IMG/VR virus record: IMGVR_UViG_3300009446_000004
Reading direction: 5' to 3' (one strand)
DNA length: 64,000 nt
DNA from: a virus
Below the pieces are notes generated by a model. It made no database searches. It was given only the letters and a program-made list of their open reading frames with translations, and was not told where the DNA came from. This document shows, piece after piece, positions 5,392-44,431 of the stretch; position 1 is the stretch's first letter, and the number at the start of each line of letters is the position of its first letter. The position numbers and the translations under genes are program-made.

Positions 5392-6129
5392 TTACCTGAA
5401 AATCTGTTTCCCCATCAAATAGCAAACAATATCAAGCAAGGATACCAAGAAGAAACCAAAATAGGCTAGCATCCCAGGGTTAAGATGAATCATCTTTTTT
5501 GCTCTGTCGAAGTGCATCCCTGACAGGGAGACATTTTCATGTGTGTTACCCATCAACCAGGTGAATAGTCTGCCCTTATGGTGATCTATTGCAAAATCAG
5601 TCAAGCTATCCCTATTGTTTGGCGTCTTTCCTTCTGCGAGTATATAATCAAAATCATCAGGGCCATTCTCTTTCATTAATTTGAAATTGGTGTAGTCCCG
5701 TTCATCGTGCTTGGTTGCATTCTCAAAATGAAACTTAGCTTGATGCCAGTTCTTATCCTTGTAATGTATTCCAACTCCGTGTTTATTCCTCAGTGTAGCA
5801 AACGGGAGTTCCTGGCCTGTTCTGGCTTTCTTCAAAAGCATATGATACACAAAAAATAAAGATCCAAGCAGCATCCAAAATGTAGCCCAAAACCAAAACC
5901 CATACCAAAAGCAAACTATTGTAACTATCAGACAGATAAATGATTTTAGTTGAGTCGTCGCAAACCTGTATAGCATTTTGATAACAAACGGCGAGGCAAC
6001 ACCTAGCATGAAATCAACTTGAGTCCATAGTAATAGCGCGACGGTCTTGAACCAATCGGAGTTCTTTTTCTTTTTTCTTTTACTCCCCATCATCTGTCTT
6101 TTTGAAGTTTTCCGAGGCAATATGTACAA
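5392..6129 (-). CDS. multi-pass membrane protein with a soluble central domain
   Basis: Basic N-terminus (KRKKKK), 2-3 hydrophobic helices, a soluble region and a C-terminal TM helix. Confidence 0.7.
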   Translation of the reverse strand: MYILPRKTSKRQMMGSKRKKKKNSDWFKTVALLLWTQVDFMLGVASPFVIKMLYRFATTQLKSFICLIVTIVCFWYGFWFWATFWMLLGSLFFVYHMLLKKARTGQELPFATLRNKHGVGIHYKDKNWHQAKFHFENATKHDERDYTNFKLMKENGPDDFDYILAEGKTPNNRDSLTDFAIDHHKGRLFTWLMGNTHENVSLSGMHFDRAKKMIHLNPGMLAYFGFFLVSLLDIVCYLMGKQIFR

Positions 6130-6994
6130 TTACAGCAAGAACCAACGAAGCACAAAACCCGTAAACATAGCCCCAAAAAGTTTGATCCGCCTTCGACCAG
6201 AAATGGATAAGTGTCAGGATAAAAGTTAGGCCAGTAATCGGAAAAATTCCGATCCAGTTCCGACCGCTATGTAAGGTCTTTGCAATCATTACCTCAGTAC
6301 CAACGGCTATTCCGATTCCGAAAAGGTAATCAGTCGGATGGCTGTAACCGCCTTGGGTTTGACCGTATGTTGCAACCATCATTCCGAAAGTGGCGAACCC
6401 GGTAATCAAAAGGGCAAAGGAATACAGACCGCGTTCCGACTGTAAATCCTTCTTTAATCGGTTTTGTTCCGACTTGAGAAACTTATCTAATCGTGAACTA
6501 ACATCGGCTAACTCAGCATTAAGGCCGGAAATCTCTGCTATTTTGCTTGATAAATCGGACCGGAATAGTTCATTTTCCAACCTTAAAAGATCATCATCGT
6601 TCCGAAGCTTTCGGATTATTTCGGTCAATTGTTCCGATTCGTTCCGACTATTTTGCAGGTCCGATCGGAGCTTGTCCGATTCATCAGCGGTTGGTTTGTC
6701 GGATTTTTCCGAAACATTTCCCGATTTTAGAAGATCCGATTTTAGCAATTCAAAGGCTTTACGATCCGATTTGCTACCTAGCAAAGTACCGTCCAACATT
6801 GGAGCTATAACCAAATCCAAACATCCGAAAGAACCATTAAATAGGATTTTGTTCCGACCTCCTGGCTTTATAACCGTCATCGGATCGTTTGGATTTTCGG
6901 TCTTGTATTTCTTGAGCTTTCGAGTTATTGCGGTGGATGCAGTGGATGAGTCAGATCCTGGGAATACTAATTTGGCTATTTCTGTGATCAGCAT
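6080..6994 (-). CDS. putative DNA-binding + coiled-coil + four-TM membrane protein
   Basis: Likely start ATG 6994 (MLITEIAKLVF, ACACCAC-type leader). N-terminal helix-turn-helix-like segment, heptad coiled coil and four C-terminal hydrophobic helices. Confidence 0.7.
   Translation of the reverse strand: MLITEIAKLVFPGSDSSTASTAITRKLKKYKTENPNDPMTVIKPGGRNKILFNGSFGCLDLVIAPMLDGTLLGSKSDRKAFELLKSDLLKSGNVSEKSDKPTADESDKLRSDLQNSRNESEQLTEIIRKLRNDDDLLRLENELFRSDLSSKIAEISGLNAELADVSSRLDKFLKSEQNRLKKDLQSERGLYSFALLITGFATFGMMVATYGQTQGGYSHPTDYLFGIGIAVGTEVMIAKTLHSGRNWIGIFPITGLTFILTLIHFWSKADQTFWGYVYGFCASLVLAVIVHIASENFKKTDDGE
6238..6884. repeat. dense array of TCCGA/TCGGA pentamers inside a coding sequence
   Basis: Hand count of 24 exact copies (17 TCCGA, 7 TCGGA on +), including inverted pairs such as TCCGATCGGA at 6660-6669. 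Confidence 0.85.
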
Positions 6995-7065
6995 TTTAAT
7001 CTTTGTGGTGTTAAAAAACCGCCACAGGAATCCGAGATCCTGTGACGGTAAACAAAACTCTAACC

Positions 7066-8010
7066 TTATTTCTGTGCTTCGACCCATTCATTAAGATCTT
7101 GGATCTTTTGAATCAAACGATTTGCGATCTTTTCACCCTTTGGTGTCTTATCGTTTTCCTGCATTTGTTTTAAGGTCTGGATCACCTGAAACAGATAATC
7201 AATGTAAGGACCAGTTGGATCTCCTGGATCCTCAGGGCTTTGGGTATTGGTGGTGATTTTTTGTAATTCACAAGCCCCAACAGCCACATGAGCTATAGGA
7301 GCCGTTTCGGGATTCCATGCAAAGTGCTCCGCCTCTGCATCTTTAAGACCTTCAGGTCGATCGTCGATGCTAGTTGTGTCCTCTTCTATTTCCTTGTTTA
7401 GCTGGTTTGCTATTTGCTGTCTTTCCTTTGCTTCAGCGTCCACTTTCCGTTGTGCGATTGCTTGAGCTCGCTCCTCTTCAGCAGCCAGTCTTTCATCCTC
7501 CTGAACTTTGAAACTTAGTTTTGCAAGTTTCAAAACTTGGGCGAATTGCTCTGTACTAAGATCCGCCGCGCTTGATCCCTTTGGGAAAACGTAGTGGCCT
7601 TGGTACGGCTTTAGCTGGACCATGCGCTCCTGACCCGTTTCGTATCGTTTCTTTGCTTCGGCCTGCTCTGCCAAAGTCTCGATCATTGCAAGCTTGTTCT
7701 CTACTGGCTTGCTTGTATCGTCAACCAACGATTGTAGGGCCCTAAGTGTGTTATCCAGGGGTTTAATCTGATTCCGGTCAGATTTAATATCGCCAGTAAC
7801 CGCAAGTCTAGCTCTGCGGATTTCAAGACGCTTGTCTTTGGCTTTCTTTTGACCTTCGTGGTCGTCGGCCTCAATATCTTGATCCAGTATTTCTGTAGCC
7901 TCAGAAATTAAGGTTTTGATAACGGCCATACCGCCGTCATACTTGGTTTCCAGTTCTGTTGCTTTTTCTAAGGCAACACCTGGATCTATTGCTTTTTTAA
8001 CTTCACTCAT
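7066..8010 (-). CDS. coiled-coil protein (DUF1351-like)
   Basis: Likely start ATG 8010 after the leftward promoter. Long charged helices (EIRRARLAV...NQIKPLDN...KPVENKL). Confidence 0.5.
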   Translation of the reverse strand: MSEVKKAIDPGVALEKATELETKYDGGMAVIKTLISEATEILDQDIEADDHEGQKKAKDKRLEIRRARLAVTGDIKSDRNQIKPLDNTLRALQSLVDDTSKPVENKLAMIETLAEQAEAKKRYETGQERMVQLKPYQGHYVFPKGSSAADLSTEQFAQVLKLAKLSFKVQEDERLAAEEERAQAIAQRKVDAEAKERQQIANQLNKEIEEDTTSIDDRPEGLKDAEAEHFAWNPETAPIAHVAVGACELQKITTNTQSPEDPGDPTGPYIDYLFQVIQTLKQMQENDKTPKGEKIANRLIQKIQDLNEWVEAQK

Positions 8011-8038
8011 GTAAGATTGTTTTTTGTTTTCAACTTCT

Positions 8039-8080
8039 ACGCAAATATAAAGTAAATAAACGAAATGCAGAAACAATGCG
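8039..8080 (-). promoter_or_regulatory. leftward promoter (Bacteroidota type)
   Basis: Minus strand TTGTTTCTGCATTTCGTTTATTTACTTTATATTTGCGT contains TATATTTG. Confidence 0.7.
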
Positions 8081-13531: not shown

Positions 13532-13981
13532 ATGAAGCCAGTAAATCAGGTCGTTCAAGACCTATACAACATCAACATAACAGGAGTTGCGATACCTCGA
13601 TCGTGGAGGCTGCACATACGCAAGATCACAAATCGATCCAACAAACCGTACGAACAAGCCATTAACATACTATCACACGTATGCTTTCAGTACGAAGGTA
13701 TTGAAAGCCGTGATTATTCTGGTGCACCTATCCTGTGTCAAAAGTTTGATGGAGACGCTTATGCTATGAGCTATAGGGAAATAGAGTCCACCCTTGAATA
13801 CTCTGCTGATGTAGCAAGAGAGGCAATCAAATACCTAGTCAAATCAGGTCTGTTAGTCCAAGAGATCATAGATGTTGTGGTGCTCAAAAATGGAACAAAG
13901 TTATCCAATGTGATGTACCTGATTCCGGTGCCTAGCGAGATTCAAAAAATAACTTACTTCCCTTCAAAACTACACCTGTGA
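13532..13981 (+). CDS. replication initiator N-terminal-domain paralog (stand-alone)
   Basis: Aligns by eye along its length with the N-terminus of 13978-15306; likely start ATG 13532. Confidence 0.7.
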   Translation: MKPVNQVVQDLYNINITGVAIPRSWRLHIRKITNRSNKPYEQAINILSHVCFQYEGIESRDYSGAPILCQKFDGDAYAMSYREIESTLEYSADVAREAIKYLVKSGLLVQEIIDVVVLKNGTKLSNVMYLIPVPSEIQKITYFPSKLHL

Positions 13982-15306
13982 AGAAAGCTAATCAGATCGT
14001 CCAAGACCTAAGCGAGCTAAATTTTGCTGGTAATATTACCCCAGCATCTTGGTGGCGCCACATACTAAAGGTCAACAACAAAGTCAACCAGCCTTGGGAT
14101 AGAGCAATTAATATATTGGCAGAGATATGCTATCAATATCGTGGTGTATTGCTTCCTGATTCTGCTGGAAGCTCTTGCCTGTACCAGAAGTTCAACGGTG
14201 ATGCTTATTCAATGAGCTACCGACAATTAAAGAACCGATTTGGGTATAGCAAAGATGTCGCGAGACCTGCTATTGATTACCTACACGATTCCAAATTAAT
14301 AATCAAACACATTGAGGATTGCGTAACACTGCCAAACGGTAGAAAGCTATACAATGTGATGTACCTAATTCCAATTCCCGCCAATATAGCCAAGATCACC
14401 TATAATACATGGGAAAACGATAGTACGGAGGAGGATAAAGACAATGACTATCTAAACACAGGGGGTAGCAGTCTATTGCCATCTACCCCTAGCGGTCTAT
14501 TGCCATCTACCCCTAGCGGGCTATTGCCTACTACAAATACAGAGATTACTATTACAGAGAAAGAGATAGATAGAAAGGGAGAAATTTTAAATGATCATTT
14601 AAAAACTTGTTTCCAATCAAGCCCCGAAAACGAAGAAGGCGCCACAAATGATGAAAATCTATATATAGAGGGAAATGAAATGTCTCCTAGTGAGAGGCTA
14701 CTGGCCTACTATTCCGAGAAAGGGCTGATGCAGATCCCGAAACGAAAGCGAGACGATAACGCTAGGGCTATGTTTCACGCACTGGCAAGGAAAGGCCCAA
14801 AGTACAAAGGGAGCAAAGGCGTAACAGGCGCAAAGACGTTGTTGAGGCTCTACGGTGAGCAATGGGACTTGGCAGGTGAAAAAGATGGAATGACAAACCT
14901 AAGATCATTAAGCCAAATGCTAGGCGGCTATGTAGGCGCTGTAATGGCCTCAGAGGAGCGCAAAGGCGAAATCAAGGTAAAACCACATTGGAAGGCCGAA
15001 ATGCTCCCAGCGGACGCAGGACAGGCACAGACGGAGCTTTTAGATCACTTCAAGGCAAACCCAAAAGAGCTAGATAATTTAATCAGAGGCTTTGAGTGGG
15101 TCAATTGGGAATCAATGGTGGAGGACTTCGTGCTGCATTATTGGGTAACAGCGGACAAACCGATACTAAACTTGGAAAAGGCAAAAGCCAAGCTTAGGGC
15201 TACATGGATCAAGCGAGCGAGGCGCGAAGACCAGGAGGAGGAAGAGCCACGGAAAAAATTAAGAAACCAAGGAGGCGGATCAGTGTACGATCGCTATAAA
15301 ACTTAG
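13978..15306 (+). CDS. phage replication initiator protein
   Basis: N-terminal wHTH-type domain (GNITPASWW...SYRQLKNRFGYSK), an internal repeat linker followed by TEITITEKE, and a position within the replication block. Confidence 0.7.
   Translation: MKKANQIVQDLSELNFAGNITPASWWRHILKVNNKVNQPWDRAINILAEICYQYRGVLLPDSAGSSCLYQKFNGDAYSMSYRQLKNRFGYSKDVARPAIDYLHDSKLIIKHIEDCVTLPNGRKLYNVMYLIPIPANIAKITYNTWENDSTEEDKDNDYLNTGGSSLLPSTPSGLLPSTPSGLLPTTNTEITITEKEIDRKGEILNDHLKTCFQSSPENEEGATNDENLYIEGNEMSPSERLLAYYSEKGLMQIPKRKRDDNARAMFHALARKGPKYKGSKGVTGAKTLLRLYGEQWDLAGEKDGMTNLRSLSQMLGGYVGAVMASEERKGEIKVKPHWKAEMLPADAGQAQTELLDHFKANPKELDNLIRGFEWVNWESMVEDFVLHYWVTADKPILNLEKAKAKLRATWIKRARREDQEEEEPRKKLRNQGGGSVYDRYKT
14460..14534 (+). 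repeat. 24-bp iterons, probable replication origin inside the initiator gene
   Basis: CTATTGCCATCTACCCCTAGCGG(T/G) at 14473 and 14497, a partial third copy at 14521, and an inverted half-site GGGGTAG just upstream. Confidence 0.7.
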
Positions 15307-19639: not shown

Positions 19640-21514
19640 TTGGAAACACCACTAAAACAAATCAAGGCGGATATACGGTTGGAGGCTTCTGGAAGGACTC
19701 AGAAATTTACAACTAAATGCCCATTTTGTAACGATACAAGAAAGAAGCACCCGAACCAAAAATGCTTCACAATTTGGCCCATTGAAGAAACCTATAATTG
19801 TAACCACTGTCATCAAAAAGGTAACTTTAAAATACATGAGGACAATCCCTGGGATTTACCCAAAAGAGTAGGGACATTGAAGCCAGTAGAACCACTATAT
19901 AAAAGAATGGCAGAACGCGGAATTGATAGGGATACAGTGGATCATTTTAAGATGACTTGGCAAAAGGAATGGAAAAACAGAAAAGGTGATACGGTACCTG
20001 CTACTGCTGTATATAATTTCTTCGAGGGCAATACTTTGATGAAGCAAAAATTCAAAGGCTACCAAAAAGACGGAGAGAAAATCATGTGGTCATCCTCCAA
20101 CAGCAAACACATTTTCTACGGACAGCAACACATGCCTACCGAGGAAGGGCATTTGATAATAACTGAGGGGGAGGATGATGCTATGTCATGGAGGCAATGC
20201 GGTGTAAGGGTCCCGGCGTGGTCGGTAGATAACGGTTCTTCATTAAAGAAGATTGGCAAAAAACTAGAATGCTTTGACAACATAAGTCGATTATTCCAAG
20301 CAGATGAAGAGGGGGAATACAAGATCACAAAGGTGTATATTTCTACAGATGATGATCCTGCTGGTTTGGTTCTAAAACAAGAACTCATAAGGCGCCTAAG
20401 GATTTGGCGCTGTTACATCATCGAATACCCTGAAGGGTGCAAAGATGCAAACGAGGTGCTACACCCAAAGGGGCCATTAGCAGGAAAGACAAAAAAAGAA
20501 AGGGAAAAGATACTACGTCAATGTTTCCTAGACGCTAGACCAGCACCGAGTCCTGACGTTCAGTATTTGGAAAACGAAATATGGGATGATATACTCAATG
20601 ATCATAGGCATGGATTAGAGACCGGAATATCTACAGGATCAGACCTGTTAGACCAAGTGCACCTTCACAGTCCAAATGGTAGTTTTGAAATATGGACCGG
20701 AATCCCTGAACACGGGAAAGGTGAATTTTTGCGATGGGTTGCAATGATGGCCGCTGTAAAGCACGACTGGAAATCAGGGTGGTATGTTCCTGAAGATATG
20801 CCGTCAAAGAATTTTTACAGAAAGCTAAGCGAGACTTATATAGGCAAGCCATTTGATAACCAGAAGCAGGATAAATACCCAGCCATGACAGAAAGCGAGC
20901 TCATCGCTGGAATGACATTTGTCAAAAATCATTTCTTTACAACACAACCGGAAAAAAACAAAAAACAACGACGAATGCCTACGCTCAAATGGGTAATTGA
21001 GGTGATGGAATGGCTAGTACTAAAAGAAGGGATAAGGATGTTTGTTATCGATCCATTCAACGGGCTTGATGCAAATTTCAAGATATCGCCAAATATAGCG
21101 GACAGGATGCAAAAAGACCTGACAGAAATGGAATACCAGGCTATGGAATTAGGTGTCAAGTTAGTTGTGGTAATGCACCCTAACAAAATGGAATACATGT
21201 CAAAAACGAGCAGCGAATTAAAAATGCCAGGACGGTATCATGTTGCAGGTGGGGCAATGCCTGTAAATAAATGCCACACAATGGCGGTGGTACACAGGGA
21301 GACAGATGAAGGCACTGACGAACTCAGCAACATTGCGCTTTTCCGATCGCTGAAGCAAAAGAACCAGGGAATAATGACAACAACGGGGCAAAGGGCTTTT
21401 GAGTTTGTGCCACACAAAAGACGATACATACACGCTGAAACCCAGGGTGACCCATTGGCTAATTGTTTGGCTAATATCGAAACAGAAATTGAAGATCAGG
21501 ATATACCGTTTTGA
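19640..21514 (+). CDS. bifunctional primase-helicase (T7 gp4 / Twinkle-like)
   Basis: Zinc finger CPFC...CNHC; TOPRIM IITEGEDD...STDDDPAG...KDANEVL; helicase TGIPEHGK, FVIDPF, VVMHP. Confidence 0.9.
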   Translation: METPLKQIKADIRLEASGRTQKFTTKCPFCNDTRKKHPNQKCFTIWPIEETYNCNHCHQKGNFKIHEDNPWDLPKRVGTLKPVEPLYKRMAERGIDRDTVDHFKMTWQKEWKNRKGDTVPATAVYNFFEGNTLMKQKFKGYQKDGEKIMWSSSNSKHIFYGQQHMPTEEGHLIITEGEDDAMSWRQCGVRVPAWSVDNGSSLKKIGKKLECFDNISRLFQADEEGEYKITKVYISTDDDPAGLVLKQELIRRLRIWRCYIIEYPEGCKDANEVLHPKGPLAGKTKKEREKILRQCFLDARPAPSPDVQYLENEIWDDILNDHRHGLETGISTGSDLLDQVHLHSPNGSFEIWTGIPEHGKGEFLRWVAMMAAVKHDWKSGWYVPEDMPSKNFYRKLSETYIGKPFDNQKQDKYPAMTESELIAGMTFVKNHFFTTQPEKNKKQRRMPTLKWVIEVMEWLVLKEGIRMFVIDPFNGLDANFKISPNIADRMQKDLTEMEYQAMELGVKLVVVMHPNKMEYMSKTSSELKMPGRYHVAGGAMPVNKCHTMAVVHRETDEGTDELSNIALFRSLKQKNQGIMTTTGQRAFEFVPHKRRYIHAETQGDPLANCLANIETEIEDQDIPF

Positions 21515-28120: not shown

Positions 28121-29595
28121 GAATCCCACGAATCAAATTAACAATAGATAGGCTTATCCACGAAGCGGACAAAGCCTATCTATTCTACCGTAAAGGGAAA
28201 GAGTTTTGGGTGCCTAAGTCAATGTGCGAGATCTTAGGTGGCGGCAATACTCCTAAGAAGTTTTTCAAAGTATTGCTTCACCCTCGAAAGTTCCAAGAAC
28301 AAACAGGTGTGATTCCTCAAGCATTGGATACTTTTAAAATGGCAGTGGCTAATAGCGCCTATGATTTAGATAATCACCCAATACGAGAGTTAAAAGGGTA
28401 TGCGTTATTTCCTAAGCAAAAAACAACAATCGAAAAGGTGTACAGGTTGAAGTATTGTGCTTTGATCTGCGAAATGAGAACCGGAAAAACAGTTATGAGC
28501 CTTACAATTGCTAATAGTAGGCTAAAAGCTGGATTGATTGACAGAATTATTGTAATCGCTCCACTAAGAGCAAAAATTGCTTGGCAGGATTATGATATTC
28601 CTTTTGAGTTTTACCCTATTGAGCACTTTTCAAACATTCACACTAGGGTTAAGATTCAGCTTAATTGTGATACAAAAACAATGGTGATTCTGGATGAATC
28701 ACACAAAATCAAGAATGATAAGGTTAAACGCCAGGAGCTTATCATAAACGAAACCATTACTGCTGGCTTCAAAATGATACTTACTGGAACCCCAATAGGT
28801 AAACATGCTGGAGACTTGTTTTATCAATTTGCTTTTCTATCCAAGGATATACTAAGATTCAACAGCTATTCAGATTTTAGCGAGAGCCATCTATTGTATG
28901 GCGGCAGAGACGGTAGCAAGGTAGTAGCCTATGCAAATATCGAAGAGATAGCCGAAAAGATAAGCCCTTATGTGGCTTTGTTGAACAGGTCTGATCTTTG
29001 GGACGAAAAGTTAAAGATTAAAAAGGTCTTCGTATTCAAGTTGAGTTGTTACAAGGATTATAAGGAGCAAGTTGATGAGATGCGCGATTTAGTAACAGAA
29101 AACAAAACAGTCCACGTATTGGGCGCAATGGTAAAACTACAGCAGATGGCAAGTAATGATGCGAATAGGATCGAAAAGCTAAAAGAGATGCTTGATGACC
29201 GACCTACAGTGATCTACTATAAGTTTGAAAAGGAAGGTGAAGTCATTGACCAATTAGAGATACCACGATTGAGCGGCAAGACTTCCAATATGGATTTTGC
29301 TGTGATATTGAATGATTTCAATTATGGAGCAATTAAAAGAATCGCAATCCAGCAGAGCATCAGTCAAGGATTTAGCTTGAAAAAAGCCAGTCGATTAATC
29401 TATTACTCTACCACTTTTAATCTATTGGATAGAGCTCAAAGCGAAGAGAGGGCATCAGAAAACAGAGAAGAAATAGAAGTTGCTGACATAGTTGCAGAAG
29501 GCACTATTGATGAACGGATTCAAGATGTATTAAATTTGAAAACCACGATAGTTAAAGCATTCAAAGATGAGACTAAATCCAGAAGTGGACGTTAA
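28117..29595 (+). CDS. SNF2-family helicase/ATPase
   Basis: CEMRTGKT, VILDESHKIKN, ILTGTPI, LQQMAS, QGFSL, DRAQSEER, TIDERI. Confidence 0.85.
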   Translation: MRIPRIKLTIDRLIHEADKAYLFYRKGKEFWVPKSMCEILGGGNTPKKFFKVLLHPRKFQEQTGVIPQALDTFKMAVANSAYDLDNHPIRELKGYALFPKQKTTIEKVYRLKYCALICEMRTGKTVMSLTIANSRLKAGLIDRIIVIAPLRAKIAWQDYDIPFEFYPIEHFSNIHTRVKIQLNCDTKTMVILDESHKIKNDKVKRQELIINETITAGFKMILTGTPIGKHAGDLFYQFAFLSKDILRFNSYSDFSESHLLYGGRDGSKVVAYANIEEIAEKISPYVALLNRSDLWDEKLKIKKVFVFKLSCYKDYKEQVDEMRDLVTENKTVHVLGAMVKLQQMASNDANRIEKLKEMLDDRPTVIYYKFEKEGEVIDQLEIPRLSGKTSNMDFAVILNDFNYGAIKRIAIQQSISQGFSLKKASRLIYYSTTFNLLDRAQSEERASENREEIEVADIVAEGTIDERIQDVLNLKTTIVKAFKDETKSRSGR

Positions 29596-30994
29596 GAACG
29601 TAATCACCCAGAAAGAGCAAAATAAAAGATTAAGCGGCATAAAAGGGAAAGTGGAGTTTATCCCATTAGCTAAGGCCATAGGGACCGAGTGGGAGGAATC
29701 AATTAAAGAACTTGCGATAAAAGATGTCTTTGCAAAAAGAGCATCGAGAGCAAAGTTCCTGCGTAAGAATGCATTAGTTGTAACAGTTGATGGACAGTTT
29801 GCTGCATTTAGTATTTTCGAGAGCGACAGCAAAGCACAGCAATTCTATCAATGGCAAATTGGGATCGACGCCCCATATAAGGGGAAAGGATTAGCTAAAG
29901 TAATTGTGAACGAAACATTGAGCAGGAACGTAAACAATTATCCAGCTGTAGTTTCTGTTTTCAATAAAAATGAAATCAGTTTAGGGCTATTCCAGAGCTG
30001 CGGTTTTGAAGTATATAGGAAAACCGGAGGGCTTTACAGATTAACCAGAGGCGGAATAGTCGATGGAAAGGAGGTCACAGCTTCTAGCGTTGGAAGAGTA
30101 AAAGCACTGATTGGCATTAATCCAACGAACCTATGGAATAGCGCAAAAGGAGATTGGAGGCAAGCAAAAGCGGCATGGAATGAACTGATCGAGACTGCTG
30201 GAACAATGGCAGATGTCGATAATCCTACATATGCAAGTCGTGAAGGATGCTGGCAAAAAGATGGAGGCTTGGCAGCATTTGCTACAGGAAAGGCATTGAA
30301 TGATGGGGCTTCAGTGCTAGACCCGTTTGTTTGCGAATTATTATGCAAGCTATTCATGCCAAAGAACGGGAACAGAATCTACAATCCATTTGGCGGAGGT
30401 GTTCAAATGGGATTCATTGCTGGGACATTACAGCACGATTATGTGGGTAGTGAGATTAGGCAAAATCAATGTGATGCCAATAATGCCATTTGTCAGGCAA
30501 TGGATCTTCCGGCAAAATGGATTAAAAGCGACAGCTCGACTTATGAGCCAGAAGGAATGTTTGACATGATTTTCAGCTGTCCTCCTTATTACAAAGTAGA
30601 AAAATACATCGATTACGAGGGAGTGATTCCAGAGGGCGAATTGAATGATCTGGATACTTATGAAGAGTTTCGAGACATGCTATTTCAAGGCTACAAAAAA
30701 GCTATTGCAGTATTGAATGACAACCGATTCTTTTGTGTTATGGTAGGAGACTCAAGAGATTCAAAAGGCGCTTACTATTGCTGCGAGGCGGAAACAATCC
30801 TTTTCCTTAGAGAGCAAGGGCTTCATGTGTACAATAAAATCGTTTATATGGAAACTCAATTTACAAGAGCAATGCAGGTGCCTAAGACAATCAGGACCCG
30901 AAAGCTCCCTAAGACAGAGCAAAAGATTATCATTGCTTACAAAGGGAACTTGAAGAACATCAAAGCAGAATTTGAGGACTTTGGCAGGATATAG
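29567..30994 (+). CDS. GNAT acetyltransferase - amino DNA methyltransferase fusion
   Basis: N-terminal GNAT (QIGIDAPYKGKGLA...N...LFQSCGF); C-terminal MTase (SVLDPFVCEL, YNPFGGG, GSEIR, DMIFSCPPYY). Confidence 0.8.
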   Translation: MRLNPEVDVKNVITQKEQNKRLSGIKGKVEFIPLAKAIGTEWEESIKELAIKDVFAKRASRAKFLRKNALVVTVDGQFAAFSIFESDSKAQQFYQWQIGIDAPYKGKGLAKVIVNETLSRNVNNYPAVVSVFNKNEISLGLFQSCGFEVYRKTGGLYRLTRGGIVDGKEVTASSVGRVKALIGINPTNLWNSAKGDWRQAKAAWNELIETAGTMADVDNPTYASREGCWQKDGGLAAFATGKALNDGASVLDPFVCELLCKLFMPKNGNRIYNPFGGGVQMGFIAGTLQHDYVGSEIRQNQCDANNAICQAMDLPAKWIKSDSSTYEPEGMFDMIFSCPPYYKVEKYIDYEGVIPEGELNDLDTYEEFRDMLFQGYKKAIAVLNDNRFFCVMVGDSRDSKGAYYCCEAETILFLREQGLHVYNKIVYMETQFTRAMQVPKTIRTRKLPKTEQKIIIAYKGNLKNIKAEFEDFGRI

Positions 30995-33839: not shown

Positions 33840-33912
33840 GCGATCGTAGCTCAGTTGGTAGAGCATCTCCCTTTTAAGGAGAGGGTCCAGGGTTCGAGCC
33901 CCTGCGATTGTA
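33840..33912 (+). tRNA. tRNA-Lys(TTT)
   Basis: GCGATCG/CGATTGT acceptor, GCTC/GAGC D-stem, TCTCC-CTTTTAA-GGAGA anticodon arm, CAGGG-TTCGAGC-CCCTG T-arm; CCA not encoded. Confidence 0.93.
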
Positions 33913-33920
33913 CAAATGAA

Positions 33921-34106: not shown

Positions 34107-34190
34107 GGTAGGATACCAAAGCGGTCAAATGGACTAGACTGTAAATCTAGTGGCTCCGGCCTTCGGCGGGTTCGAATCCCTCTCCTACCA
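34107..34190 (+). tRNA. tRNA-Tyr(GTA)
   Basis: GGTAGGA/TCCTACC acceptor, CTAGA-CTGTAAA-TCTAG anticodon arm, long variable loop, TTCGAAT T-loop. Confidence 0.93.
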
Positions 34191-34208
34191 CTCACATAAT
34201 AAATCACT

Positions 34209-43294: not shown

Positions 43295-44431
43295 ATGCCA
43301 ATTGATTTAACGGCCGATGAGGTCACAGAGATCATTATTACAGCGACAAATTTAACGGCCGATGAGGTCAAAGAGCAATATTTGGACGCTGACGGGAAGC
43401 CGGTTGAAAACTGGAAAGACAACTATAAAGCGACTGTTGTAGGCGCAAGAACTACAGCAGCAGCAGCAGCAGCAGAAGAGGCTAAGAAGGCGGCTCTCGA
43501 AGGTGTGGTTCCTCATGACATCTACCTCCGAGATAACCTGGCAAAACAGTACGGCGTAGTGCCTGATGAAGGCGAAAAGAGCAAGACGCTCATGCCAAAG
43601 ATTTTTGCAGCAGCAGCAGCAAAGGAAACCGAAAAGCTAAAGGCTGAGATTGAAACATTGAAAGCTGGAGGGGCAAAGTTGTCTGAACTTCAAGAGCACA
43701 AAGATGCTCTCAAGAAGATCGAAGCCTTGGAAAAGCAAACCGATTTAGCTAAAAACCCTGATTATCAAGCAAAGCTTGTTGAACTAGGCAAGGCTACCGA
43801 GCTAAACGAAAGTTTTGATACTAGGCTGGAGGCGGCTGTAAAGGAAAGAATGACGACCTATGCTGCTGAACAAAAGGCATTAGCAGCAGCAGCAAAGGCG
43901 CTCAGTGATACCAATTCAGATCTCAAATCTCAGTTGGTAAAAGGGGCAAAAGCACAAACACCTGAAGATGCTACTATTGTAAGCAATTTGGCTGATATTG
44001 TGATTGAGAAGGGAATGGTTTTGGATGGCGTCAAATTAATTGCCAAGAAAACAAAAGGCACAAACGATTACTATTTTACAAAGCCAGACGGCACTCTTTA
44101 CATGGATGGCGCAAAGGCCGTCCCGGTGCTTCCGTTTTTGAAAACACAAATACAGGGATTAGGTGTCAAATTCCTAAAGGAGCTGCCAAAGGATTCCACA
44201 GTTGATAAGACAGAAAAGAAAACAGCAGAGCAGGTCCTGGCAACCAAAACGCAGGACCTAGATCTGTTTAAATCTGAACAGAGCACAATTGCTCAGGACG
44301 AAACAAAGACAAAAGAAGATCGGTATAACTTGCTTTATACCACATGGTCAGGCATGAAAAAACTCGAAGGATCAGAGGATAAGGCGGCAAAAATGTCATA
44401 TATCCATAGTCTGATGAAACAATTAAGCTAG
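43295..44431 (+). CDS. capsid scaffolding protein (probable)
   Basis: Ala/Lys/Glu-rich coiled coil directly upstream of the capsid gene. Confidence 0.6.
   Translation: MPIDLTADEVTEIIITATNLTADEVKEQYLDADGKPVENWKDNYKATVVGARTTAAAAAAEEAKKAALEGVVPHDIYLRDNLAKQYGVVPDEGEKSKTLMPKIFAAAAAKETEKLKAEIETLKAGGAKLSELQEHKDALKKIEALEKQTDLAKNPDYQAKLVELGKATELNESFDTRLEAAVKERMTTYAAEQKALAAAAKALSDTNSDLKSQLVKGAKAQTPEDATIVSNLADIVIEKGMVLDGVKLIAKKTKGTNDYYFTKPDGTLYMDGAKAVPVLPFLKTQIQGLGVKFLKELPKDSTVDKTEKKTAEQVLATKTQDLDLFKSEQSTIAQDETKTKEDRYNLLYTTWSGMKKLEGSEDKAAKMSYIHSLMKQLS

Follow-up and report, generated by a model that had tools for sequence, protein, structure and literature searches.

How can a protein-coding gene come to hold a dense cluster of short DNA sites, and what might such a cluster do? 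This question is raised by a stretch of 64,000 nucleotides of viral DNA (IMG/VR virus record IMGVR_UViG_3300009446_000004; hereafter the window), in which exact copies of the pentamers TCCGA and TCGGA crowd into a single minus-strand gene, here called the array gene, whose product is named P0002. The array is a cis-acting DNA element that is maintained by selection and overprinted on an orphan membrane-protein gene. A sequence-only reading of the window had described the cluster as a hidden centromere-like array and proposed that the encoded protein binds its own gene, tethering the genome to the membrane for an FtsK motor. That interpretation is partly supported, in that its outline stands and DNA binding by the gene product is unproven.

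A pentamer array within one gene

Exact TCCGA or TCGGA sites number 74 in the 64-kilobase (kb) window, of which 24 fall within 6238-6884 and 27 within 6056-7031, which leaves 47 for the remaining 63 kb; at the background density outside the array, 650 base pairs (bp) would be expected to contain 0.5 such sites. The sequence-only reading had counted 24 copies in the same core interval plus those at 6056, 6111 and 7031, and all of these coordinates were recovered, as were its roughly three sites in the gene of the FtsK-type ATPase (4122, 4158 and 4654), its two orientations and its four inverted pairs (6238/6248, 6601/6611, 6660/6665 and 6699/6708). It had also called for a scan of k-mer enrichment. 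When the densest 650-bp cluster was sought for every 4- to 7-mer in an unbiased manner, TCCGA at 6238 emerged as the top local cluster of the window (Poisson p ~1e-31), outranking a CAG-type trinucleotide run at ~43.45 kb.

The unit of the array is TCSGA (S being C or G), a 5-bp quasi-palindrome whose two forms, TCCGA and TCGGA, are reverse complements of each other. It is sharply defined, because one-mismatch variants of the word stay at background; for example, TCAGA and TCTGA occur 0 and 1 times in the array gene and show no enrichment. The sites occupy all three codon phases and both orientations, all of which are enriched, and each form is enriched separately on the sense strand (TCGGA 18 against 1.7; TCCGA 7 against 1.9, a level reached in 5 of 5000 randomisations). 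No tandem repeat or longer repeat unit was found beneath the array sites, and 4 of the 8 sites in the minority orientation belong to small inverted pairs whose two pentamers lie 0-5 bp apart.

The reading of TCSGA is not fully symmetric, as seen in a polar extension of the word and a preference for TCG. Of the 18 TCGGA copies, 7 have AC as their next two bases (p 6e-5 to 1e-3), and where both serine codons would serve, TCG is chosen over TCC by 9:2 (p 0.009). Furthermore, a polar subclass represented by the 8-mer GTTCCGAC recurs in the array on one strand only (Table 1), and its sites (6257..6858) are encoded in two phases, as x-Ser-Glu and as Gly/Ser-Arg-Asn. Outside the array gene the plus-strand ratio of the word is 28:19, and the shorter form GTTCCGA has only three copies beyond the array.

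Synonymous choice and the DNA word

Resampling of synonymous codons from the usage of the window gave 3.8 +/- 1.8 sites (maximum 12 in 5000) against the 26 observed. When the gene's own synonymous codons were permuted, so that its odd usage was preserved (TCG for 12 of 31 Ser codons and CGG for 6 of 16 Arg codons), 10.7 +/- 2.1 sites resulted (maximum 18 in 5000), and the enrichment therefore survives both forms of synonymous shuffling. In addition, an opportunity-saturation statistic was used, in which the places where synonymous choice permits TCSGA are compared with those where the word is actually written. The array gene carries the word at 25 of 38 such opportunities, some of them mutually exclusive, and within residues 37-294 at 25 of 31 non-exclusive ones, whereas 34 other open reading frames (ORFs) use 34 of 713 (4.8%; binomial p 2.7e-24 for the array gene). 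The flanking genes use 0 of 12 opportunities upstream and 2 of 12 downstream, and the array is therefore bounded by one gene.

The same bias is visible at the level of individual residue pairs. Ser-Asp/Glu pairs are written with TCC or TCG in 11 of 12 cases (p 1e-7), every Phe-Gly and Ile-Gly pair is written xTC-GGA, and x-Arg-Asn triplets are written xxT-CGG-AAC in 4 of 4. The protein also offers more opportunities than its composition would suggest, with 38 against 21.3 +/- 3.7 in the shuffled protein sequence (0 of 2000), and with 12 Ser-[Asp/Glu] pairs against 3.7 expected. This excess implies either that the word has shaped amino-acid choice too or that the ORF grew over a pre-existing array. 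The three codon phases, together with the opportunity and resampling controls, bear out the earlier claim that no protein repeat lies behind the array: it is a nucleotide-level signal under selection, and neither a protein repeat nor a codon-usage effect.

Two further candidates were considered and rejected. A rare-codon or transfer RNA (tRNA) effect would concern TCG and CGG, rare codons that are heavily used by the array gene and have no matching phage tRNA; the phage carries only tRNA-Lys and tRNA-Tyr, and permutation with the gene's own usage still falls well below the observed count (10.7 against 26). General enrichment in CpG was discarded in the same way, as CpG outside TCSGA is at its normal background level.

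The array gene and its product

The array gene most likely starts at an internal ATG at 6994, on the basis of the 304-amino-acid form found in protein databases, and site 7031 therefore lies outside the coding sequence, in the loop of an upstream hairpin (Table 1). The hairpin stands directly after the first gene of the leftward block and about 25 nucleotides from the ATG of the array gene. This gap leaves no room for a promoter, and the membrane-protein and FtsK genes thus seem to depend on read-through. The minus-strand frame scores as coding, with a codon log-odds of +0.10 per codon, like its neighbours.

A 234-amino-acid antisense ORF at 6390-7094 on the plus strand was rejected as a real gene, with a log-odds of -0.09 where the minus-strand frame has +0.10; the composition of the array is the probable reason why it has stayed open. 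Its translation is rich in Ser, Arg and Phe.

The first ~70 amino acids of P0002 are predicted to form helix, helix, beta-hairpin and helix, a pattern that fits a winged helix-turn-helix (HTH) domain as far as secondary-structure prediction goes. The middle ~115 amino acids form a charged coiled-coil or helical region of low complexity, rich in Lys-Ser-Asp and Ser-Glu, and the C-terminal part holds 3-4 hydrophobic transmembrane (TM) helices. Searches with P0002 in Pfam, PHROGs and NCBIfam gave no family match, even at an expectation value (E) of <=10 for the N-terminal part. Similarly, no homologue was found in a word index of 5.8 billion proteins, among 1.84 billion representatives searched with HMMER, in IMG/VR or in JGI metagenomes, and the ESM Atlas contained no look-alike of either the whole protein or its N-terminal part. 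A look-up by identity likewise returned P0002 alone. An AlphaFold model built without an alignment reached a predicted local distance difference test score (pLDDT) of 52, too poor for a fold search.

The gene block and the phage

The array gene, a second membrane-protein gene (P0124) and the ATPase gene (P0003) share one leftward block, with the array gene two upstream of P0003. Genes run leftward to the left of ~8.1 kb and rightward beyond it. The features of this block and of the rest of the window are collected in Table 1.

Table 1. Positions of the array, of the genes around it and of other features of the window (strand as + or -; ORFan, ORF-encoded protein of orphan status)
Feature	Position	Strand	Remarks
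P0003, FtsK/SpoIIIE-type ATPase, 469 amino acids, alpha and beta motor domains, no TM helix	3848..5257	-	PF01580, E 1.6e-24
P0124, next gene downstream of the array gene, membrane protein, 2-3 TM helices	5392..6129	-	no family match; 5' end bears sites 6056 and 6111
TCSGA array, 26 exact sites	6056..6884	+ strand reading: 18 TCCGA, 8 TCGGA	spacing irregular, 5 to 127 bp
Array gene, P0002, 304 amino acids, ORFan	6080..6994	-	basis: codon scoring, protein-database form
Polar subclass 8-mer GTTCCGAC	6257, 6433, 6466, 6641, 6851	+ only	5 of the window's 6 copies
Further copies of the 7-mer GTTCCGA	6599, 6631	+ only	array total 7 of the window's 10 copies
Terminator-like hairpin, 12-bp stem with 7 GC pairs, T-run, 8-nucleotide loop	7018..7049	-	loop holds TCGGA (7031)
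27th TCSGA site	7031		in the hairpin loop
P0123, upstream gene, acidic helical soluble protein	7066..8076	-	first of the leftward block; sharp upstream array edge
Three tandem 24-bp repeats TAGCrGTCTATTGCCATCTACCCC, then an AT-rich tract	14466-14620		in O-like gene 13978-15306
GNAT acetyltransferase and PF01555 N6/N4 DNA methyltransferase (beta-class) in one ORF	29567-30994		
tRNA-Lys(UUU)	33840-33913		just past the terminase gene
tRNA-Tyr(GUA)	34107-34191		just past the terminase gene

P0003 matches the FtsK motor structures 2ius (E 1.8e-34) and 2iuu at an E of ~2e-34, and its motor domain is modelled at pLDDT >90 with an alignment of 59 homologues, whereas its last 85 residues (386-469) reach a pLDDT of only 40-69. 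A BLAST alignment with cellular FtsK extends weakly through the gamma domain (KIGATRAQRIYEAVKE against IGYNKAARIMETLEK), and a sequence-reading C-terminal end on this motor is possible; the Pfam model FtsK_gamma was not detected in P0003 even at E<=10. The best protein matches to P0003 share <=32% identity and are mostly cellular FtsK, which is also the best-scoring NCBIfam model. PHROGs files phage FtsK-like ATPases under 'moron, auxiliary metabolic gene and host takeover'. Among other loci with such ATPases, both the FtsK-like ones (L001 and L005-L008) and those of cellular FtsK (L002-L004) showed only ordinary in-frame tandem protein repeats.

The window makes up most of a 76.6-kb contig from a tailed phage, and a marine metagenome, probably its source, is the one public run in which the phage occurs. 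Its genes include those for a T4-type large terminase (TerL) and a tape-measure protein, and on the replication side a DnaN clamp, a Toprim/AAA primase-helicase and SF2 helicases, besides a GNAT-methyltransferase fusion. The closest matches to its TerL come from Flavobacterium phages (36% identity), and the host is probably a marine Bacteroidota-like bacterium and not an actinomycete. The DNA of the gene block had no match among GenBank phages, and relatives of the FtsK-like protein of the window were not found in IMG/VR.

A proposed docking platform at the membrane

The reading that we favour, plausible though short of probable, is that the array serves the membrane translocation module of its gene block as a multivalent platform for docking on the DNA or loading onto it. 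The ~25 copies of TCSGA would be bound by a sequence-specific DNA-binding domain supplied by the same block, for which the N-terminal domain of P0002 and the C-terminal gamma-like region of the anchor-less ATPase P0003 are the candidates. The bound array would fasten the phage chromosome to the membrane at the translocase. Such a tether might help the DNA to be replicated or segregated at the membrane, taken up, or transferred. We infer, and do not observe, that the word is read on duplex DNA, which of the proteins reads it and what purpose the tether has.

Several observations are consistent with such a platform, among them the selection on the DNA word, the shift of the protein towards residue pairs that can carry it, and the likeness of P0002 in architecture to SpdB2 (see below). 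The array is sharply confined to one gene of a block that encodes two membrane proteins and a soluble FtsK-type ATPase, and the array messenger RNA (mRNA) shows no special folding. Both complementary words are enriched on the sense strand and TCSGA is its own reverse complement, which fits a signal on duplex DNA better than one on a single RNA strand. Moreover, a better candidate for the replication origin lies elsewhere in the window, and the array need not fill the role that arrays of this kind most often have.

In a more specific form of the proposal, which we consider unlikely as it stands, P0002 would insert into the membrane co-translationally and its N-terminal domain would grip the ~25 sites in its own gene, pinning the chromosome beside an anchor-less FtsK-type pump. 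The pump would then act on double-stranded phage DNA, with a compartment, the far side of a septum or a neighbouring cell as the destination. If true, this self-attachment would give a phage its own version of RacA/SpoIIIE or TraB/clt/SpdB2, and would do so in a lineage from which nothing similar is known.

Other results weigh against a docking platform. The 5-bp unit is short compared with the 8-16 bp of known centromere, clt, ram and FtsK-orienting polar sequence (KOPS) sites, and so sharply defined a pentamer is more typical of the specificities of methyltransferases or nucleases. The spacing of the sites has no significant periodicity, with neither 10-11-bp helical phasing nor any period above the null. 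The sequence-only reading had called the product a putative DNA-binding membrane protein; the TM helices uphold the second half of that description, and the family, look-alike and structure searches did not demonstrate a DNA-binding domain for the first half, so that DNA binding by P0002 has its sole pointer in the predicted secondary-structure pattern and is unproven. Furthermore, the gamma-like end of the ATPase escapes Pfam and is poorly modelled, no ParA or ParB family match was obtained among the 29 window ORFs scanned (a scan that some small ORFs lay outside), five other FtsK-like loci, three of them clearly phage and two in cellular FtsK contexts, have no analogous array within 10 kb, and the phage is a singleton in public data.

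Relation to known systems

During sporulation of Bacillus subtilis, some 25 ram regions are held by RacA and the resulting membrane tether speeds SpoIIIE (PMC4914108, PMC6593407). On the proposed reading the two would be alike in that a protein with a DNA-binding domain ahead of a coiled coil anchors ~25 chromosomal sites at the membrane or pole, that this tether improves a translocase of the FtsK family, and that the sites cluster, with clustering enhancing their binding. The units differ, however: ram is a 14-bp GC-rich palindrome spread over ~600 kb, whereas the word considered here has 5 bp and is confined, in all its copies, to 0.8 kb of a single gene. RacA, a soluble protein, docks on DivIVA, whereas P0002 has TM helices of its own and no sequence similarity to RacA, and a MerR-like fold is not established for it.

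The other comparison is with the transfer of conjugative Streptomyces plasmids by TraB, an FtsK-like translocase of double-stranded DNA, whose partner SpdB2 is an oligomeric membrane protein with an N-terminal coiled coil and four TM helices and is reported to have homologues in actinophages (PMC4447253). There, the C-terminal winged-helix domain of TraB recognises clt, a small number of 8-bp repeats in direct orientation, and DNA binding by SpdB2 is non-specific (PMC4447253). The window resembles this system in having an FtsK-like motor near a protein with a coiled coil and 3-4 TM helices, and a cluster of short repeats in cis. It differs in the quasi-palindromic 5-bp unit, present in both orientations in ~25 copies within coding sequence, of which only the five GTTCCGAC copies are direct repeats. 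In addition, P0003 scores 46 bits against a cut-off of 800 with the NCBIfam model plasmid_TraB and is not a TraB orthologue, and P0002 is similar to no protein. The array system is a member of neither the RacA/ram nor the TraB/clt family. The units of the array do not match the earlier label parS/clt-like in length, number and spacing.

The array also departs from other short-site systems. In ParABS the parS sites are few and either ~16 bp long or regular iterons, whereas irregular 5-bp sites here saturate a coding sequence; KOPS and SpoIIIE recognition sequences (SRS) are 8-bp asymmetric words found genome-wide with strand skew, whereas this word is concentrated in a single gene. In oriC, where SeqA is the reader, and in the P1 pac site, GATC forms clusters of 7-11 sites over 160-250 bp, most of it non-coding. 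GATC there, like TCSGA here, is a palindromic word that is very short, exact and enriched locally; the GATC clusters are read through their methylation state and are linked to membrane sequestration of DNA.

Sites in cis inside the gene of their own binder are already known, for example parS inside spo0J, the T4 gp16 pac site, and oriV inside repA of RepA_N plasmids. As here, the cis site overlies coding sequence, often that of a flexible linker, and the iterons of an IMG/VR locus described below (L066) use the same TCG-GAA (Ser-Glu) codons. These arrays differ in consisting of 1-10 longer, regularly spaced units, and to our knowledge none of them saturates two thirds of its synonymous opportunities in three phases and both orientations. 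The density seen here is unusually extreme, and it is tied to a phage FtsK module.

Cis sites within coding sequence are invisible to gene-based annotation, and the array gene is an unusually clean example of them. With two thirds of its synonymous opportunities occupied, against one in twenty elsewhere, it shows a DNA signal overriding the choice of codon and even of amino acid. Its setting gives a concrete handle on the role of phage-encoded FtsK-like ATPases, and the opportunity-saturation statistic could be applied across genomes to find further elements of this kind.

Alternative explanations

The strongest rival to a docking platform, although we regard it as doubtful, is a cluster of methylation sites. 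A DNA methyltransferase, such as the enzyme encoded at 29567-30994, would act on TCSGA, and the array would be an epigenetic patch in the manner of the GATC clusters, whose methylation state would be read, possibly by P0002, so as to sequester or release the stretch after replication. A 5-bp palindrome with a degenerate centre has the format of type II specificities such as GANTC or CCWGG, the word is sharply defined with no excess of one-mismatch forms, and irregular, unphased spacing is what would be expected if sites count singly; the phage moreover encodes a candidate writer in its PF01555 methyltransferase fused to a GNAT domain. However, the missing enrichment of TCAGA and TCTGA means that the target would have to be S-specific, and the polar extension and the preference for TCG indicate an asymmetric reading that a palindromic methylase site does not need. 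We also know of no methylation patch in which ~25 sites saturate a gene body. A signal in the mRNA, with UCGGA as the target of an endoribonuclease or RNA-binding protein that makes one transcript hypersensitive, is improbable in our view. Its model would be the pentad-specific MazF toxins and their target-rich mRNAs, such as the UACAU word of S. aureus (PMC7470975), and it would be in keeping with an array that coincides with one gene, has TCGGA as its major sense form (18 sites) and places UCGGA again in the terminator loop just upstream. Sense TCGGA is also depleted about three-fold in the other ORFs (8 against 22.9 +/- 4.7 expected, rank 11 of 1024 pentamers), but TTCGG and TCGGG are depleted there likewise, and the depletion may thus be a generic codon-pair effect. 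A MazF-type target would be one RNA word enriched on the sense strand only, which is not what was found: the complementary TCCGA is enriched on that strand as well (7 against 1.9) and is not depleted elsewhere. RNA structure was also rejected as an explanation, with a folding z of -3.07 relative to shuffles against -2.93 for the neighbouring gene used as control.

Duplex DNA could also be read by a protein with quite another purpose, for instance a host protein titrated by the array as a decoy while phage DNA multiplies, or a repressor using the array as an operator that silences a potentially toxic membrane-protein gene. Dense exact sites on duplex DNA would suit both, and the position of the gene behind a strong terminator, with no promoter of its own, suggests tightly limited expression; the chance of either is slim all the same, as no candidate binder was identified, silencing normally works at promoters and not across 800 bp of gene body, and comparative support is absent. 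A role in replication, in which a phage initiator would read the sites as iterons of an origin, be it primary or secondary, or of a cis replication region, is again quite unlikely. The lambda ori iterons sit inside gene O, and runs of GTTCCGA in IMG/VR are typically origin iterons (L060, L066, L074 and L114), which would favour this role. Yet those loci have 4-12 copies at a regular spacing of 8-12 or 21 bp, an AT-rich centre and an adjoining initiator gene, whereas the array has ~25 irregular copies and lacks an AT-rich tract, its AT content peaking at 0.72-0.74 per 50 bp. The array sits in a membrane-protein gene, with the replication genes 7-13 kb away, and a classical candidate origin is present at 14466-14620. 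Finally, the array might have no present function, with an ORF that has recently overprinted an older, repeat-rich non-coding tract and sites that are decaying relics of it. The orphan status of the gene and the low-complexity middle of its protein would be in keeping with such a history, which is nonetheless very hard to credit: 25 of 25 sites are exact with near-variants at background, the reverse of what decay predicts, no longer repeat unit exists, and the frame scores as coding like its neighbours.

The candidate origin and iteron loci elsewhere

Judged from its sequence, the tract at 14466-14620 is a candidate for a lambda-type origin. Each of its 24-bp repeats is flanked by GGGGTAG/CTACCCC inverted ends, and together they encode a repeated SxLLPSTP linker peptide. 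The pentamer array is probably not the origin.

In IMG/VR, at least 120 loci matched a pattern of three GTTCCGA copies separated by no more than 30 bp. Those inspected were either in-frame protein repeats or classical origin iterons, the mixed-phase ones being textbook origins. The loci were selected by the pattern itself, and the shared word is therefore no evidence of relatedness. At L060 (IMG/VR 3300021400_000035, 2440-2890), about eleven TGTTCCGAC iterons are split into two sets of opposite orientation by an AT-rich spacer, and the gene for a Rep helicase with DUF927 and HTH_56 (Cch-type) ends directly 5' of them. This locus is a Rep-ori module in the style of Staphylococcus aureus pathogenicity islands and staphylococcal cassette chromosomes (SaPI/SCC), carried by a viral contig, and its 8-mer matches the polar subclass of the window. 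A comparison of the N-terminus of P0002 with the iteron-binding end of the L060 Rep protein revealed no similarity.

At L066 (3244-3290) and L074 (2452-2492), four 12-bp TCGGAACCTAyc iterons are coded as Ser-Glu-Pro repeats in the linker of a 231-amino-acid initiator-like ORF. A purine-rich AT tract follows the iterons, and the ORF stands immediately upstream of a primase-helicase gene whose product is 27% identical to that of 19640-21514 in the window. Likewise, GTTCCGAA iterons lie beside DnaA boxes at L114, and the array at L111 adjoins a gene for a D5-like helicase. Iterons coded by TCG-GAA inside the gene of their own binder thus occur in nature, and the array of the window differs from these loci in copy number, regularity of spacing, AT-rich centre and adjoining initiator.

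A minor observation concerns the second-strongest local k-mer cluster of the window, AGCAGCA/CAGCAGC at 43455-44150, with 10-12 copies of these 7-mers per 650 bp in the ORF 43295-44431. It looks like a trinucleotide run of the Gln/Ala/Ser type in a protein of the virion module.

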